Of a DNA stretch of 64,000 bases, positions 10,241 to 19,915 are shown piece after piece. The position numbers were made by a program, and so were the translations under genes. The DNA is taken from NCBI GenBank assembly GCA_010093705.1, contig MU006097.1, forward strand, positions 507,905 to 571,904. Direction: 5' to 3'. Source of the stretch: Patellaria atrata CBS 101060 (lineage: Eukaryota). Numbering within the stretch: position 1 is the first letter of the stretch; every line of letters starts with the position of its first letter. The notes below the pieces were generated by a model, which was given only the letters and a program-made list of their open reading frames with translations, was not told where the DNA came from and did no database searches.

Positions 10241-11516
10241 TGTTGAGGGTGCCGTGCAGCGGCTGGCGACCCTCGAGGAGATTTATACAAAATATGCGAT
10301 CGCAGCTCGTGGTGGATGTTGCTTTTGCGGTGTCGAATGAGTTGTTCCCAAAATAGGTACGCGAGAGATGACGCGGGAGGTCGAGCAACTCCTAATTTGA
10401 GAAGCGTGCAGTGAACAAGGCTGCTAAGTCTCACCAACCCTTTGAGAGCTTGTTGCTTATAATGTCGTCTGTCGTCGGACGCGAATAGCGCAAAGAGGAG
10501 ACGATACTGGGGTCAACTGGGGTGACAGAATGCGCGGGAGTCAATCTGCCTTGAATTGCTGCTGGGTGTGATGCGGCCGTTGACTTGAGTGGTTGAAGTG
10601 CTAGGTCAGCGAAACGCGAAGTATGCGGTTCGTGCAGGGTCGGTGGCAGTGCTTTGTCGATAAGCTGCAGGAGCGAGAGGGATACGACAGGAGGTTTATG
10701 TAGGTATGAAACACAGTTTGAGAAGAAAAGAAGGGAGAAGAAGTACGACGGTGGCCTAAGTGTCAGGTGTGGGATTTTCTTTGAAATGGCAACGATCGGT
10801 TGGAGAACGAGCGAAAAGACAGCAGGTCTGCAGGAGAGGTGCAGCAACAGGAGAGTTGAGTTGAGAAAGGCTGTCGCTTGGCGAGTGAACGAAGTGGCTG
10901 CGGAGCTCAGGTACAGTACTTGGATACCTGATGCCAAGGTATCCTCCACCCGAAAACAACAATCTTCAATTTGCAGAGTGGGTGCGAGATAATTGATGAT
11001 GTTTGAAAGAGAGTAATGAGTGTAGTGCGCACAAAGGCAGATGAGTGTGGGAACGGAATAAGGAGAGATGAAGCTCAAAGAAAGGGTGAGGAGAACTGAG
11101 ACTCTCGTGGTCGTGGTGGATACTCCGGTACCAAAGTTGGGAGTACTTTGTACCCTAAAAACGAACTCTACCTCCTTACGCGCATACCAAGAGATTTAGG
11201 GAACAAAATATGAGTATAAATATATACTATGGGCCTGATAATCAATTATAGTAGCATATTATAATATTATAAAGCTTTGAGGTGCAATTAGAGTGGATAT
11301 CTAAACAACTATAAGCTCATCTACATATGGAAGCTTTGACCCAGAGGAGGTCGCTTCCCAAAAAGTTCGGGAGAGCTGGAGAGAGCTTCATCACATATCG
11401 TACACCATACCGAACCTTCATCGACCTCCGTGTAGTGAACAAGACACCTACTTAAGGTATTAAGGACTATACTTCATATAAGAGGGATCTAATACGAATT
11501 CCTAAACAACCTCATA

Positions 11517-11920
11517 ATGGAAGGGTACGTCACCCTCACCCCAACTTCCACTCCATCATCCGAACTAACCTTCTCTCAGACTCAACGCCCAAGAACAAAG
11601 GGAACTCCAATCCCGCATGGAGAAGAAGCAGATGAAGGAATTCATGACGGTCCGTCTCATCCCTTCCCTCCTGTCCATCCCCGTCATCCTTATCCTCCAA
11701 ACCCATGTCTAACTCTCTCCTACAGATGTACTCTAATATGGTTCAACATTGCTTCGATGACTGCATCAATGACTTCACCTCCAAGACTCTCGGCTCCCGT
11801 GAGGAAGGCTGCGTCATGCGCTGCATTGATAAGCGCATGAAGGGCTCAGAGAGGATCGGGAATCGGTTCCAGGAGCAAAACGCTGCGATGGCGCAGAGTG
11901 GAGCGTTGCCAGGGAGGTAA
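11517..11920 (+). CDS. TIM9: Mitochondrial intermembrane-space small Tim chaperone Tim9; exons 11517-11524, 11580-11649, 11726-11920
   Basis: Spliced product [46 protein letters not shown]...GCVMRCIDK...RFQEQN carries the twin CX3C motif. Confidence 0.95.
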
Positions 11921-12368: not shown

Positions 12369-15300
12369 TCATGCCGTACTACCACGTCCTCCAACCTTTC
12401 CAGCAGCCTCCTTCTGCATGTCTGTGAGCTTGATGTCCGGTAATGGCTTTCCCTTTCCTTCAACGGGAGGTGGCATGAAACCGGTTGCTACAAGATAAGC
12501 CAAGTAGACCCCCAACTCCTTTTCTGTAACCGCACTACCTGCGGAGACGTCCTCGCCCGTCCACTTCGCGTCGGCCTTCAATGCGGTTGCGGCATTCGTG
12601 TCGGCAAGATCTGGCGCCTTAGTACCACCAGGGAGATCGGAGGTTACCATGTCGTAAAGGGGTAATCTGATACCGAAGTTAGTGATGAACTGGGAAGAAA
12701 ACAGAAAGGGAGTAAATACAGAGCGTGGTCTTCCTTCTGCTGCTGCTTGCTGTTTCCAACATACTCCTCCATTCTCTGAACCCATTCCCTATACTCCAAC
12801 TCGGGTACATCATACCCATACCCCCTCAGCGCCGCGCCCATATCTTTAAATGTAATTCTCGGGTGGGCCGTCACTTGCGCCACACCCAATGGCGCCACTG
12901 GAGGGTTCAGCGTCGATGCTACAACGACCCTGGCAACATGTGTAACCGGAACCTGATTAATCGTATTCTCAATTTTAGGAGCTGCCGAAAGCTGCACGCA
13001 GCCCTTAAGGAACCGCACCAGGAAGTCGTCCGTGATAGTGGCTCCACTGACTGGATCACCAAGGATGTAGCCGGGTCTGATAACGGTGCCGTTCAAACCC
13101 CTCTTACCTGCCTGGCGTACGATATATTCGCTGGCCCATTTGCTCTGACCGTAGCCGTTTCCGAGGCCTTTTCTGCTCCCTTCTAGGGGGTCGGATTCGG
13201 GGAGTCCGGCACCACCGGCTGCGAGATTGTCTTCTGCTATCTTGACGATGGAATCGGTGTCTAGAACGCTAGTTGAGCTGACGAAGCCGAATTGTTTTGG
13301 CTTACCAGATGCGCAGAGTTCAAGTGCAGCAACTGTGCTGAGTACGTTTACGTTGCGGAGGTTTGCGTACGGGTAGATCCAGTGGACTTGTGCTCCGTTG
13401 TGGATTACTACGTCCACAGTCTCCTTGAGCTTTTCCCAGACTGGCTTCTCTACGCCAATGTTGAGTTGAGTGAGGTCACCGAGAACACAGGAGATTCGGG
13501 TTCGCCAGGCTTCATCCCAGACGCCGTACGCACCGCAAGTTCTAATGATTCTTTCTAGGGCTGTAGCTTCATCTTTAGCCCTGACGTGTGCAAAAACTTT
13601 TACACCTGGTCTTAGGAGAAGATCTCGTAAGATATATGCACCCAGGAAACCGGTACAACCAGTAACGAAAACACTGAGTTCGCCGGACGGGTCCAGAATT
13701 GCGGTCTGAAACTTCCGTGGTAGCTGCTGGGCCAATTGTTCCGCATCTGTAGAATAATCGTCGTCCTGATTTTGTGCGTTGTTCAGATCCTCAGCATTAT
13801 CAATCCGCAGACCAATTGGATCACGTATGCGATCAACCTCTGCCGCAAATTTTCGTAGTGTTGGATATCGGAATATTGCAGGCATTCGCACATCTGCTTC
13901 AAACTTCTTACGGACAGTACTTAACATACCCTGTGCGATCAATGAATTTCCTCCAAAGTCCCAGAAGTTGGAGTCGGGTTCCAAGGACGATTCGCTTAGA
14001 TCTGGTATTAGGTCTGCCCACAGCGCAGCAATCGCCTTCTCGGTGTCCGAAAGGTTGGCGGTTGCTTCCGCTGACCTCTTAGGAGCAGCTGAAGATAGAT
14101 TCGCAGGTGTAGGATAAGGGAGAGCGGGTTTATCGATCTTCCCATTTGGATTCAGGGGAAAGCGCATAAGCGGTACAAATACAGACGGAACGGCATATCC
14201 AGGTAATTTGGTCTTAAGATGCTCTCGGATATCATTCGTCAAGGACCAGAACTTCTTCAGCATTGCAGACATGCTCTCGTCCTCCGGTGCTACCTCGAGG
14301 CCATGGTCATTATGTTGAGTCGCTATCCACTTTTTGAATTGTGTGATCTCTGGTACGAAATACGAGACGAGAATGGGTTCTTGATTAGGTGTGCGTCGAA
14401 GAATCGTGACATTCTCACGCACGATCGGGTGTGCTGAAAGATGTTTGTCTATTTCACCAAGCTCTATCCGAAAACCGCGAATCTTGACCTGATTATCAAC
14501 GCGCCCGGTGCATGATACGTTACCATCAGATCCTCTGACTCCCAGATCACCGGTACGGTAAAGACGATCTCGCGGCCCTAAATACAACTGTCGCCACGGT
14601 TCAGGCGCTCCTTGTGCCTGAACTCGAGCATTGTCTTCTTCTACCCATTTTTTGGGATCGAGAAACCAATTTGCGACGAATTTCTCCTTAGTAACTTCTG
14701 GCAAGCCAAGATAGCCTTCTGCAAGGCCGGCAGCGCGGACATAGATCTCACCTGTCTCGCCTACATCGCACAATCGATTTCTATCTTCTCTGTCGACTAC
14801 TAACAGTTGAACTTCTTTCATCCCCCTTCCAGCGGGTACTATGTCACCGATAGTGTCGAGGAAGTTCGGATCAGAATTGCGGCTTGGGATCTCGTAGTAA
14901 CTGACGGCTCTGCTCGTTTCTGTGGTACCGTACATGTTGACGATGAATACCTGGAAGAGTTAGCTGCGATGGATTTCCTCTCCTATGCCAGAGTTGCACT
15001 CCTTGATTACTGTATGTTTACTATACAGATATCGGCGAACTGCCAATTCTAAAGTACAAACATACAACTGTCACCCATGCAATGCAGGTATTTGTACAGT
15101 TGATACATGGTTGTGGTCTCAGTACTTTGTATAGTAATGCCGGGATCTTACTCAGACTAACCGTCCAGTATGCCAGGCTCACCATGAAAAGGAGAAAAGG
15201 ATGGAACAGGAAAATGTACACTTACATTTGGAGCTAAGTCTTGGAGGCGTCGGCAATCCCTTTTGATCAAGATGTCCCCAACGAAGAATGAATGGTGCAA

Positions 15301-16453
15301 TGCTGGAAATTGGGTCTTATTCTGGCCACCAACCAAGATGGAGCCCATTGCTGGAGTCAAATGCGTGATAGTCGCGCCTTCTCGGTTGAACCAGTCAACT
15401 AAACTATCATGTTGTATATCTTCCCGACTCGGAATCAGGAGTTGTGCGCCTAAGAAAAGTGGGGTAAAGATATCTCTCTGGATCGGATCGTGTGCTATGC
15501 CACTAAGCATAGTGAATTTATCTTCCGAACTTAGATCGAACCGCTCCTTCATCCAGGGGTAATAGGACGTGAGACTGAAATGACGCCCTCTAACACCTTT
15601 TGGACGTCCTTCAGAGCCAGATGTGAAACTCAATGTCGGGGTACTATCAGGACCAACTAATACATCTGGCATTTCTGATTTGAAGGGTATTTGATCTTCA
15701 AGAGCATCTTTACCATCCACCATACCACCAAGTAGTTGGCCATTTGGTAGAAGTTCAATCGCAGGAATTTCCACTTTTAGATCCAAAGTGTCGTTGATGA
15801 AATTGCGCACAACATCAGAAAGAGGTCCTGCTTCTTCAGTAGCCTAGATTATGAATCAGCTTCCAAAGTACTTACACTTTTGAAGGTCATTATACCTTTT
15901 TCAGGATACATAGAGCTCTAGGTCTCGAAACATCGAGATAGATATTTTGTCTATCTGGAGGATAAAGGGGGTCAAGCACGGAGAATGTAGCTCCACTCAT
16001 CAACACACCCTAGTCGAGTCAGCGATTGATAACTTGATAATTAACAATCAGATTGTGAGTACCATGATGCATGTTGCAAGTTCCACACTTCTTGCGGCAT
16101 AAATCATACACACATCTCCTCTCTCTACTCCTGATGCTACTAACTTATGTGCAATTAAGCAACTGGCCTCGAAGATTTGCTTATAAGCTAACATCCGAAA
16201 ATGTAATCAGTCTAGTGTCATAGTGAATTGATTTTAAGAATACGAACAATATTCCCTTCTAGGCGGTCCAGTTTCGGTTATACAGAGCCTGTCTGGATGT
16301 TTCTTAACATTTTGGGCGAACACGTCGTGGATAGTGCCCTGAAATTCTGACCACTGAAACTTGTCAATTGAAGTAAATATTTGGGATAAAGGCTAAATGG
16401 TCTACCTTGAGATCAGACGTTGGATCTGGCAAAATATTTCCATTTACTGCCAT
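12369..16453 (-). CDS. LYS2: L-2-aminoadipate reductase (NRPS-like A-T-R enzyme), six introns including a 275-nt intron at 15225-14951
   Basis: Starts [23 protein letters not shown]-domain motifs [67 protein letters not shown]. Carrier motif FGGNS. Reductase motifs [11 protein letters not shown] and GYGQSKW. C-terminal GGRG. Confidence 0.93.
14951..15225 (-). other. Unusually long, structured LYS2 intron (candidate intronic ncRNA or cis-regulatory RNA)
   Basis: GTAAGT donor, GCTAAC branch and CAG acceptor. Three hairpins plus a closing stem read by eye (see findings). Confidence 0.55.
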
Positions 16454-16696
16454 CTTGGTTCAAAGTTTCTGGGGAGTAGATCTGACACAGACACAAAGAT
16501 TCGTGAGTGAGATATATCGGATCGCACAGGGCAGGGATAGGCCCCCAAAGTCCGAAAATTCCAATTGTTCAATATATCCTCAGAAAAATATCTTCAAAAA
16601 TAATGATTGCAAATCTGCACAGAGAACCTATTGAATTGTGAAACCAGTTTAGTAGAAATATAAGGAATTGGGTTAAGTTTTCATCAGAAATGTAAA

Positions 16697-16702
16697 TGAC
16701 TC
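16697..16702. promoter_or_regulatory. Putative Gcn4/CpcA (cross-pathway control) site TGACTC upstream of LYS2
   Basis: ATGACTC lies ~245 bp upstream of the LYS2 ATG. Amino-acid biosynthetic genes are established Gcn4/CpcA targets. Confidence 0.45.
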
Positions 16703-17079
16703 CCAGTGTCCCTTCACGTCTCGTCAAAATATAAAGTCGATATCGGAGAGATACGCGAGGGAAACGGCGGAGGAGTCGGAATTACGGACGGAACATGAGC
16801 CACTCCCGAGACATTATCACGTGATACACGTGGTGTTTGACATAGAACCGCCACGAATTGTGGCTGTGATGTTCTACCTTGGCCTCCGTAATCGCCAAGC
16901 TTCTTTCGGCTAACTAGTTGCGGTGAGCTGGCCTTGTTTCTCTCAGTAAACAACAATATAATAAGGGCGGACTCCCCTCGATTTCTTCTGAGCTATCCAA
17001 CATTCTCACAACCTACAAACTCTCTCCAACTCTACGATCAAGCAACAAGAATTTCAAAACAACACAACTCCTTATCAAC

Positions 17080-17264
17080 ATGGGTCTTATGTGGACGAAG
17101 CACTTTGGTGGCAGGCATGCTGGTGGAGGTACGTTGAAACGTCCGGATTGTTGATCGAGACCTATGATAGACTAACTATGCTCCTAGGTGTCGTCATCGA
17201 TAAGCATGGTCCTCGCAGAGCTCCCTTCCGATTCAGTATTGGAAGATTTAGCTGTTTCCGTTAA
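17080..17264 (+). CDS. Spliced 41-aa cationic microprotein of unknown function; exons 17080-17128 and 17188-17264
   Basis: TCAACA-ATGG start context, a C/A-rich leader and a TATA-like element at ~16957. Intron 17129-17187 reads GTACGT...ACTAAC...CTAG. Product MGLMWTKHFGGRHAGGGVVIDKHGPRRAPFRFSIGRFSCFR. Confidence 0.7.
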
Positions 17265-17876
17265 TCAGTAACTCTCTGGTTCGTAAGGAGAAAGGCGACC
17301 TCAAACCAGCTGAGGTTTGCTGATCAATTGGACTACAGCGAACGGTCTCTTATCTTTATTACCACACTCTACAAATTCTCGGTACTCCTCGATATCTCTT
17401 GATCAAACAATGATGGATTGATCCTGTTTCTGGTATTTGGCGGATCTTTTAGCAGGGCGTTACACGCTGATGGGAAATGGTAATTCCAGTGCAACGGGGG
17501 CAACGGAGGGTCTCCTGATGATATGATGTTTCTCTTTACTTCTCAGCATTCTGGCAGTATGATTAGAGCCTAATAGAGAGTATCTCTCAGATCTTTGAAC
17601 TTCCTATGAACCCGCCTGTGCATCGGCAGATTGTCAGTTAGCGCGATGCCCTCAACTTCAAAATTGGCCCACTCTTTTTTTCCTCTGATACTTGCACACA
17701 ACTGCCGAATATAGATAAGATATCCTAGCTAGTATGGCAAAGAGTCGCACCGCCACAGCCCAGAACCATTTACCCGAGGATTGAAGAAGTTTCTCCGATA
17801 ATGATCAGCAGGTCAAAAGATTTTGAACCTTTCTAGGAATTGTGAACACACCAACACATCACCACACACTAGCAGT

Positions 17877-18675
17877 ATGGGGCGCCAACGGTCCATTTTG
17901 ATAATCAACCCTAATTCCACAACGTCTATGACTGAGGGTCTTAAACCATTAGTCGAGGCATTGGAATTTAAAGATGTACTCTCGCCACCCTTTCAAGAAT
18001 GTCTTATAACTTCTTCACTAACATATGAGACAGACAGACCATGAATTCTTCACCGCGCCATCCGGGCCCAAAAGCATCAACGACGAAGACGACGCCGCCG
18101 AAAGCGCAGACCAGTGTCTCCCGCACCTCGAAAAGATAGTCGACCAGCACTCCGGCTTCCTCGTCGCCTGCTACTCCAAGCACCCGCTCGTCCCGATCCT
18201 CAAAGCGAACGCGCACATCAAGAAGGCAAGCAAGCCCGTCACCGGCATCTTCGAGGCCTCCGTCGCCGCCAGTCTCCAGCTCATCGCGCCGGACGAGCGC
18301 TTCGGCATCGTCTCCACCGGCAAGGTATGGGAGCAGATCCTAACGGACGCCATAGCGGAGTTTCTGGGCACTCAGCCCGGCGGTGGCGACCGGTTTGCTG
18401 GTGTCGAGACGACGGGGTTAAATGCGACGGAGTTGCATGATGCGCCGGCGGAGGAGGTGAAGGATCGCATGAAGGCGGCGACGAAGAGGCTGGTGAGGAA
18501 GGGGAAGGTGGCTGCGTTATGTTTGGGATGTGCGGGCATGTCGGGCATGAATGAGATGGTGAGGGAGGCGTGCGTGGAGGAGTTGGGGGAGGTGGATGGG
18601 GAGAGGATTAAGATTGTGGATGGGGTGCAGGCGGGGGTGGCTTGGTTGGAGGGAGCGCTGAGGTCAGGGTTTTAA
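17877..18675 (+). CDS. DCG1: Asp/Glu/hydantoin racemase family protein (Dcg1-like), one intron starting at 17976
   Basis: ILIINPNSTTSMT, APSGPKSIN, FLVACYSKHPLV, VTGIFEAS and CLGCAGM (two catalytic Cys), plus IVDGVQAG. Confidence 0.88.
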
Positions 18676-18730
18676 GAGGCAGAGGAATGATATGTAATAT
18701 GCAGAAATGCGATCAAAGAGACGTATCATG

Positions 18731-19915
18731 CTACGCTACCTTCGCCACAGTTGCCTTTACAGACTCCTCTAATGGGATGAACCCACGGCCCGCAATCGAC
18801 TTGAGTAACTCTTCCGCACGCTCATTTGCTACCTTGCTAATATCATGCCCGAGTTCGGGAAAGTCATCGATGAACTTCTTTTCAGGATATAGTTTACGGA
18901 AGATAGCAAGGATTTCGTTCCAGTTATAAGGTTCTGCAAACGCAAATAAACGCTCCCCTGAAACGGTTGGATTGATCAGAGCAGCAAGATGGATTAGCGC
19001 TTGATCCTGAACTGCAATGTAGTACTCTGTAGACCTATGAGTACTGGTGGAAGTATATTGGAATTCCTGTACTTACGAGGAGGAATCGTTAGCTGCATAT
19101 CCACATTCCCCAAGAAGAGGTCCTTAAGCCGTCCTACTGTCGTTGGATAGCCTTGCTCCTCTGGAAACAAGACCTCACCAAAGTTGGCCGATGGAAGAAC
19201 TAGAAATTCGAAAATCAGCCCTTGGAACACCGCCCAGTTCAAGCTCGAGTTACCTGTGTTGAATGCAAAAGTAGCATTATTCTCCGTCACCCATCTGAAA
19301 GCAGCTTTCTCTGCTTCTACTTTACTGGTTGCATACACGAACACCGCACGATCCGTCTCGTACGGTGGAGGAGCCCACGCTTTCTCCGCTGCATCTTCAG
19401 CGTAAGTATTGCTATCCAAGGTCATCTCAACGTCAGGAATTGGAATACTAGCAGCCCATGAAGAAGAAGTATACACAACTGCTTTGACCGAGGGCTCTTT
19501 AGCCGCAGCTTTCAAGGGATTGATGAGCCCGGCGATCACAGCGGGAATAACCACATGAGGGTTGATACCTGGTGTGTGAGCAGTATGAATAATCCCGGAA
19601 ACACCTAGTACTGTTAGCGAAACCTCCTATAATATCATCTGGGACAGAATAGGAAGAATGTAAAAAACCTTTCACGGCCTCACCGTATGCAACAGCATCT
19701 GTGAGATCTTTAATGACGACAAGGTCAAACTTTCCAGGCCCATACAATTCGTCGAATTTATCTTTCAACCAAGCTGACCTTTTTCTATCTCTAACGCTTC
19801 CACGCACTTTATAACCTGCTTTCAATACTTCATTTACTATGTGGCTTGCAACGAGTCCGTTCGCTCCTGTCACGAGTATCCATGATCCAGGGGTTATTCT
19901 TAGCTCTGAGGTCAT
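18731..19915 (-). CDS. NAD(P)-dependent extended SDR (aldehyde reductase II/epimerase-dehydratase-like), multi-exon
   Basis: ILVTGANGLVASHIV...GYKVRGSVRD (Rossmann fold), VYTSSSWA and YATSKVEAEK (YxxxK). Several short introns; stop at 18731. Confidence 0.87.

Follow-up and report, generated by a model that had tools for sequence, protein, structure and literature searches.

A conserved spliced gene for a 41-residue basic microprotein beside a LYS2-type gene in Patellaria atrata

Conserved-peptide upstream open reading frames (uORFs), such as that of the fungal arginine attenuator peptide of arg-2/CPA1, are short conserved frames in which conservation is strongest at the C-terminus. At the opposite end of a protein, the consensus for N-myristoylation places Gly at position 2 and Ser/Thr at position 6, and Pro and Gly are residues that leave a free N-terminus after removal of Met. 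PGLWKS is given as the best binder of human Gid4, of the GID/CTLH ubiquitin ligase (10.1101/2021.09.03.458554). In mammals, calcimembrin (C16orf74) is described as a short disordered microprotein with Gly-2 and a cysteine that docks onto a signalling enzyme by a short beta-strand motif (PMC12612047). Here, we analysed 64,000 nt of Patellaria atrata CBS 101060 (assembly GCA_010093705.1, contig MU006097.1, positions 507,905 to 571,904 of the forward strand), hereafter the window, in which an initial annotation had proposed a spliced gene for a 41-residue cationic microprotein, head-to-head with LYS2.

The fungal microprotein, which belongs to a family of homologues in other ascomycetes, can be set beside each of these systems. 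Like an arg-2/CPA1-type uORF, its frame is short, in most cases split by an intron, shares its strand with an enzyme gene and shows its strongest conservation towards the C-terminus. It differs in lying 440–664 nt and 7–16 ATGs before the ATG of that enzyme, in having a TATA promoter of its own, and in being found by itself or ahead of different genes elsewhere in the family. With the Pro/N-degrons of Gid4 it shares, once Met is removed, an N-terminus of the form [P/G]-hydrophobic-hydrophobic-[W/Y]-[S/T]-K with an invariant Lys. This is a resemblance of motif only, given that the order of Lys and Ser/Thr differs from that in PGLWKS and that position 2 is bulky rather than Gly. The likeness to calcimembrin, which we take as a lead only, consists of a Gly-flanked [GT]-x-[VI]-x-[VAI]-D stretch and a CrzA-type promoter motif. 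In contrast to calcimembrin, to which they have no sequence relationship, the fungal members lack the PxIxIT proline, half of them lack Gly-2, and their single Cys is C-terminal.

We conclude that the proposed frame is almost certainly a real protein-coding gene. Its reading frame is conserved and under selective constraint, and a product of 41–42 codons has been kept despite gain, loss and sliding of the intron. The best explanation overall, to which we assign a probability of about 0.55, is an autonomous spliced gene that encodes a 41-residue, strongly basic, Gly/aromatic-rich docking peptide and has a stress-type promoter. The transcription unit comprises the following parts:

17080–17128, plus strand: coding exon 1, 16 codons and one base, aligning to 15 related loci with alignments that start at most 6 nt from the ATG.
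17129–17187, plus strand: phase-1 spliceosomal intron of 59 nt, with GTACGT at 17129, ACTAAC at 17171–17176 and TAG at 17185–17187.
17188–17264, plus strand: coding exon 2, two bases, 24 codons and the stop codon TAA at 17262–17264; the best-conserved part of the family.
17283–17338, plus strand: probable intron of 56 nt in the 3' untranslated region (UTR), 18 nt past the stop, recognized as a pattern match (GTAAGG, GCTGAT, ACAG).

The ATG at 17080 stands in the context caacATGG, and no ATG precedes it on the plus strand between 16900 and 17079. When joined by a script, the two exons yield 126 nt and 41 residues, in agreement with the translations of the single exons, and the product is identical to the sequence written in the initial annotation. 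Every element of the intron named there is present, the exons join in frame, and the second intron-like segment after the stop was also found. The product, which had been called cationic and rich in Gly and Phe, contains 8 Lys and Arg, 1 Asp and Glu, 8 Gly, 5 Phe and 3 His, with a grand average of hydropathy (GRAVY) of −0.30. On both strands of the window, a strict intron pattern (GTA[CT]GT, [AG]CT[AG]AC and [CT]AG at fungal spacing) has three matches, compared with a mean of 0.78 in 100 Markov shuffles; the remaining two sit within multi-exon genes.

Homologues were sought first with a 40-codon frame of the window that ends with exon 2, not with the spliced protein. This query had a single match, the 48-residue protein P0002 (E 1e-6), aligned over exon 2, and the exon-1 frame used as a protein query returned two candidates, neither of which was scored. 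A profile of the query and P0002, run against 1.84 billion representatives, matched 27 proteins at E ≤ 0.001, with the matches located at C-terminal ends. We read 25 of these and left out P0005, a protein of 2070 residues with 10 matched stretches (E 6.5e-14) at positions 13–32 of the exon-2 profile, which probably reflect a glycine-rich repeat. Eleven of the 25 sequences end with the entire, uninterrupted microprotein, whose exons are joined at precisely the point predicted from the window; the residues ahead of it evidently stem from translation of a leader. Another four contain both exons with an in-frame read-through intron at the same place, and the remainder contain exon 2 only.

With an alignment of ten full-length forms as the query, 81 proteins were detected at E ≤ 0.01 among 118 candidates, so that conserved homologues across Pezizomycotina, whose lack had been named as grounds for dropping the gene, do exist. 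Many matches are 'hypothetical proteins' of 41–43 residues deposited at NCBI from Fusarium, Colletotrichum, Verticillium, Hapsidospora, Elsinoe, Aureobasidium, Neodothiora, Hortaea, Parastagonospora, Paraphaeosphaeria, Fulvia, Bipolaris, Botrytis, Marssonina and Stipitochalara. Together they cover Sordariomycetes, Dothideomycetes and Leotiomycetes (taxonomy checked for three genera). SNOG_16005 of Parastagonospora nodorum, ACRE_053060 of Hapsidospora chrysogenum, CH063_06291 of Colletotrichum higginsianum and D9617_9g024010 of Elsinoe fawcettii belong to the same family as the window's product. The latter has all seven invariant residues of the family and a length of 41 residues, with significant similarity over the whole length, and both window exons align to at least 15 loci.

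The family is without an entry wherever we looked for one, as the initial annotation had supposed. Pfam searches with 11 family members gave only noise below the cut-off, in the upstream-extended parts, and NCBIfam gave no match to the one member used. Sequence searches of solved structures, with a single protein and a single profile as queries, did not rise above noise (E 0.28 and 0.051), the ESM Atlas contained no usable neighbour, and no paper on the family was found in searches of main texts by locus tags, peptide strings or fungal microproteins. The window gene is a member of a family that is already deposited but undescribed.

Gene callers routinely miss proteins this small, and the window gene reportedly lies outside the open reading frame (ORF) track. 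Its public relatives are in part mis-modelled, as illustrated by the upstream-extended models of Fusarium and Colletotrichum and by the two cases that follow. The Botrytis/Botryotinia proteins P0088, P0091, P0092 and P0094 follow the family up to about residue 30, after which their tails are unrelated, as though from read-through of a second intron. P0067, a 63-residue member from Colletotrichum scovillei, is labelled 'carbohydrate-binding module family 35 protein'. A different kind of observation concerns P0046, a 41-residue protein equal to the product of locus L028, for which one source lists 54 contigs, many more than for any other member; a strongly expressed gene or a common soil fungus could explain this. 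The family ranks among the most constrained short frames, spans three ascomycete classes that include many plant pathogens, and has no family entry, structure or paper. A family profile can be used by annotators, and for experimenters the gene is a compact target that is easy to delete or synthesise, with control by pH and calcium stress as a first hypothesis.

A scan of metagenome contigs provided 30 related loci (L001 to L030), of which L030, a weak and non-terminal match, was excluded from the gene models. Among the other 29, the intron lies at ATG+43 in 20 loci (49–146 nt long), after codon 22 (ATG+66) in L004, where the intron-bearing stretch is L004:1634–1809, and is lacking in 7; L023 has no model because its exon 1 was unmatched by the pattern used. 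All 28 models yield a product of 41–42 residues, with A at −3. In the window, compared with the loci over positions 17123–17134, the intron is placed at ATG+49, 6 nt downstream of the ATG+43 position and within the run of GGN glycine codons, with the product length unchanged. A frame that is kept through sliding, relocation and loss of its intron is therefore a coding frame.

Splicing can be followed in a close relative. Contig L010 matches genomic contig L014 with 99–100% identity on both flanks of two gaps, which correspond to the 64-nt coding intron of L014 and to a 49-nt intron (GTAAGC, CTGAC, TAG) starting 35 nt past the stop; one intron of a racemase gene farther along is missing from L010 as well. 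Since L010 equals L014 minus three introns, L010 is RNA-derived, and both the coding intron and the 3'UTR intron are thus spliced in a close relative of this one locus. Between L010:282–776 and L014:4226–4722, the coding parts are 100% identical and the intergenic stretch is 95.6% identical with small gaps, a divergence that suggests a mixed population or a chimeric assembly. Proteins P0015 and P0028 are continuous across the intron of L028, and come from a somewhat different relative (63–78% identity in the translated leader). Candidates for a 3'UTR intron occur 18–40 nt past the stop in the window, L001, L002, L006, L012, L014 and L019; those of L011 and L013 are weaker, and the group of L022, L024, L026 and L028 and the Fusarium-like loci have none. 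A 3'UTR intron in the window gene is accordingly a plausible reading of its letters.

Substitution patterns place the constraint on the protein. Across 21 distinct coding sequences, with 41 columns for each codon position, variation is seen in 28 columns at position 1, 22 at position 2 and 40 at position 3, and the summed entropies are 20.6, 16.0 and 48.3, respectively. The window and L015 differ by 18 synonymous and 7 non-synonymous changes, that is, by proportions of synonymous (pS) and non-synonymous (pN) differences of 0.66 and 0.07. Summed over seven non-overlapping pairs, 113.2 of 199.2 synonymous sites differ against 86.8 of 661.8 non-synonymous sites (Fisher P 2e-33), equivalent to a pS of 0.57 and a pN of 0.13, with pN below pS in 7 of 7 independent pairs. 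In a sensitive blastn search of window positions 16400–18800 against all loci, only 17057–17130, 17186–17274 and the racemase coding region align, and the intron, leader, 3' region and promoter of the window gene remain unaligned. The family is under strong purifying selection at the protein level across at least three classes of filamentous ascomycetes.

Within the peptide, M1, K7, G10, G24, R31, C39 and F40 are invariant and G11, G15, R27 and P29 nearly so, with conservation best towards the C-terminal end. AlphaFold2, given an alignment of 35 sequences, predicted a fold with a mean predicted local distance difference test (pLDDT) score of 52.1 and at most a weak hairpin at residues 18–27. 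Judged by composition and hydropathy rather than by a signal-peptide predictor, the product appears to have neither a signal peptide nor a transmembrane segment. Three assignments to known peptide types were rejected. A secreted cationic or cysteine-rich antifungal peptide, or the precursor of a ribosomally synthesised and post-translationally modified peptide, does not fit a product with one Cys, no hydrophobic stretch (by the GRAVY value above) and no repeats. A CaaX-prenylated, a-factor-like peptide was discarded because the Cys is followed by 2–6 residues across the family, rather than lying exactly four residues from the C-terminus, so that there is no CaaX box. Lastly, positions 16–21 read [GTV]-x-[VILM]-x-[VAI]-[DSNG] in the 35 aligned members; the hydrophobic positions 3 and 5 fit the calcineurin motif PxIxIT, but Pro occurs at its position 1 in 0 of 35, and the motif was set aside.

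The region upstream of the gene contains three candidate elements:

16860–16868, plus strand: candidate site for CrzA (calcineurin-responsive), similar to a calcineurin-dependent response element (CDRE), GTGGCTGTG, an exact match to the consensus 220 nt upstream of the ATG.
16878–16899, no strand assigned: inverted pair of PacC-type candidate sites, CTTGGC at 16878–16883 and GCCAAG at 16894–16899.
16957–16961, plus strand: TATAA box 123 nt upstream of the ATG, followed by a pyrimidine-rich, ATG-free leader.

A TATAA lies 112–190 nt upstream of the ATG also in L001, L003, L006, L007, L011, L012, L014 and L019. The consensus sequences are G[T/G]GGC[T/A]G[T/G]G for CrzA (PMC2818617, PMC3402410) and GCCARG for PacC (PMC3618310); GCCAAG fits the latter, and CTTGGC is its complement. 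When 6-mers were counted without a prior hypothesis over the 500-nt upstream regions of 15 non-redundant genes, GCCACA and CTTGGC ranked highest, each in 14 of 15. Relative to a background of 450-nt windows, GCCAAG or its complement was present in 15 of 16 upstream regions (background 68 of 328), the strict CrzA consensus in 5 of 16 (7 of 328) and a relaxed CrzA consensus in 8 of 16 (21 of 328), while GTGGC lying 5–45 nt from GCCAAG or CTTGGC was present in 8 of 15 (10 of 330). That the gene responds to pH or cation stress through these PacC- and CrzA-type candidate sites is a reasoned hypothesis, held tentatively and at somewhat less than even odds.

Two CACGTG boxes, 9 nt apart, were also noted at window positions 16818–16833, in the promoter region shared by the LYS2-type and microprotein genes. 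They were not retained as an element of the microprotein promoter, as none of the 14 other upstream regions shares them (0 of 14). For the same reason, it is more likely that they serve the LYS2-type gene.

In the explanation that we prefer, an autonomous gene for a docking peptide, the best-supported step is transcription, which would start from the gene's own TATA promoter with PacC-type (ambient pH) and CrzA-type (calcium/calcineurin) candidate sites. Ranked second, the peptide would lack a stable fold of its own and would dock onto a conserved partner via short linear motifs. These would be the N-terminal [G/P]-hydrophobic-hydrophobic-[W/Y]-[S/T]-K, the central Gly-flanked beta-strand, and a C-terminal segment with the invariant Arg, Cys-Phe and a basic, hairpin-like character. 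Taken separately, this mode of action is possible and on balance doubtful. In third place, the Gly-2 form of P. atrata might also be N-myristoylated and thereby placed at a membrane.

Several points weigh against this explanation. The promoter motifs were defined post hoc on the same data in which they were counted, and the loci are interrelated (L012 with L014; L022, L024, L026 and L028 with one another), so that binomial P values overstate their independence. The strict CrzA consensus is limited to 5 of the 16 upstream regions, and the PacC sites are silent on whether the gene would be switched on or off at alkaline pH. In so short a chain, a low-confidence predicted fold is weak evidence of disorder. 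A search for sequencing runs of P. atrata found no RNA run and two others, both of DNA contigs without the exon joints. Finally, the RNA-derived L010 also spans the racemase gene, which makes read-through or a transcript shared with the microprotein gene possible.

Among the alternatives, the one proposed by the initial annotation, a lipid-anchored membrane microprotein that is N-myristoylated and possibly S-acylated, fares best and is still unlikely. The product does begin with Met-Gly followed by Thr-6 and Lys-7, as expected from MGxxx[ST]K, and Ser/Thr occupies position 6 in 25 of 33 Gly-2 forms. The Cys near the C-terminus had also been noted correctly: it is third from the end in the window product, and as the invariant C39 it would be a candidate for S-acylation. 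Lipidated disordered microproteins do exist, calcimembrin being an example (PMC12612047). However, the start that fits the window protein does not extend to the family, in which 33 of 65 distinct full-length forms have Gly as residue 2 and 32 have Pro, and Pro-2 forms cannot be myristoylated. Considering these 32 forms, N-myristoylation cannot be the conserved basis of function. Furthermore, the hydrophobic, aromatic, Ser/Thr and Lys positions that follow are kept in Gly-2 and Pro-2 forms alike, and the motif must therefore serve something besides the transferase. N-myristoylation may thus occur in P. atrata, judging from its N-terminal residues, and is not a trait of the family.

The two remaining alternatives that involve another gene rest on the downstream neighbour of the microprotein gene:

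17877–18675, plus strand: Asp/Glu/hydantoin racemase family gene (DCG1-like), the next gene on the same strand; Pfam PF01177, E 2.5e-35.

Its ATG lies 612 nt downstream of the microprotein frame in the window. Synteny with the microprotein gene was found in 12 of 30 loci, all from one group of fungi: the racemase gene is on the same strand, 440–664 nt past the stop, in the window and in 11 loci (L002, L004, L006, L010–L015, L019 and L020), and in L003 it is divergent to the microprotein gene rather than downstream. The outer flanks vary, with LYS2-type and SDR-like genes in the window and a RhoGAP gene upstream in L012, L013 and L019. Given these differing outer neighbours, the microprotein/racemase pair has stayed linked within that group. 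Outside it, nine loci with at least 1.8 kb of downstream sequence contain no racemase gene; downstream of the microprotein gene, L024 and L028 have an AMP-binding gene in convergent orientation, and L026 has a cutinase gene on the same strand.

One possibility is that the microprotein acts as a subunit or regulator of the racemase-family enzyme and that the linkage stems from a joint function of the products, for which its persistence in both tandem and divergent orientation while further neighbours change would speak. We regard this as improbable: only one sequence group shows the linkage, conservation of the microprotein is just as high where no racemase gene flanks it (the Fusarium-like L005 and the group of L024, L026 and L028), and neither sequence gives a hint of an interface. 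A prediction of the complex of both proteins from L010 returned no answer, and so is neither support nor counter-evidence.

Quite improbable, in turn, is that the small frame is a conserved-peptide uORF or first cistron of the racemase (DCG1-like) mRNA that controls the enzyme gene. The tandem arrangement of the window and 11 loci amid differing outer flanks would suit it, as would a conservation that peaks at the C-terminal end and the RNA-derived L010, which covers both frames and has lost an intron from the stretch that separates them; a contig that spans two genes is, however, no proof of a single transcript. The 7–16 ATGs between the frames are no fewer than shuffled sequence would give in any of the 11 cases tested, a TATA-like AATATA stands at 17708, ahead of the racemase ATG, and the association with the same main ORF is not constant, in view of the divergent gene of L003, the nine loci without a racemase gene and the convergent gene that follows in L024 and L028.

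A more specific version of the stress-promoter idea is a long shot, namely that the product is a hitherto undescribed microprotein of stress signalling, produced while PacC and calcineurin-CrzA are active, that feeds back by docking onto a conserved enzyme, with calcineurin as the first candidate. Here, the Gly-flanked beta-strand and the basic C-terminal hairpin would dock onto the enzyme in the manner of calcimembrin or RCAN proteins, and the lifetime or location of the peptide would be governed by its free N-terminal Pro or Gly together with the aromatic motif, in Pro forms as a Gid4-type degron and in Gly forms through myristate.

Least tenable, and already close to refuted, is a chance ORF or a non-coding spliced RNA whose transcript matters and whose peptide does not, because, although the frame has only 41 codons, a poor predicted fold and no peptide evidence, its third codon positions are about twice as variable as the first and second, pN/pS is far below 1 in every independent pair, the frame retains its start, stop and length through displacement or loss of the intron, the untranslated regions and intron do not align to relatives, a search of 16300–18000 found no Rfam family at E ≤ 1, and pairwise nucleotide identities of 57–100% among the loci exclude contamination from one source as the origin of the related sequences.

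Returning to the autonomous gene, its divergent neighbour lies outside the microprotein unit:

12644–16453, minus strand: LYS2-type alpha-aminoadipate reductase gene with several exons.

The ATG of this gene, at 16453 on the minus strand, is 627 nt away from that of the microprotein gene. Two exon pieces match NCBIfam TIGR03443 with 1022 and 332 bits, and the Pfam domains AMP-binding, PP-binding and NAD_binding_4 are present, which confirms the divergent LYS2-type gene of the initial annotation. The shared promoter region is nevertheless a local arrangement: LYS2 queries match 0 of 30 related loci, and the LYS2 neighbourhood is therefore particular to the P. atrata genome and unconserved in the family.

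Two minor observations were made on other genes of the window. The LYS2-type gene matches TIGR03443 only from about profile position 228 on, and an LPDPT motif directly follows the ATG at 16453. Positions 1–227 of the profile have no match among the minus-strand frames of 16572–17992, and consequently the gene seems to be without the N-terminal domain of canonical alpha-aminoadipate reductases. At 11493–11920 on the plus strand, a small gene has a strict-pattern intron at 11525–11579, and its translation contains twin Cys-x3-Cys motifs, which may mark it as a small Tim protein.

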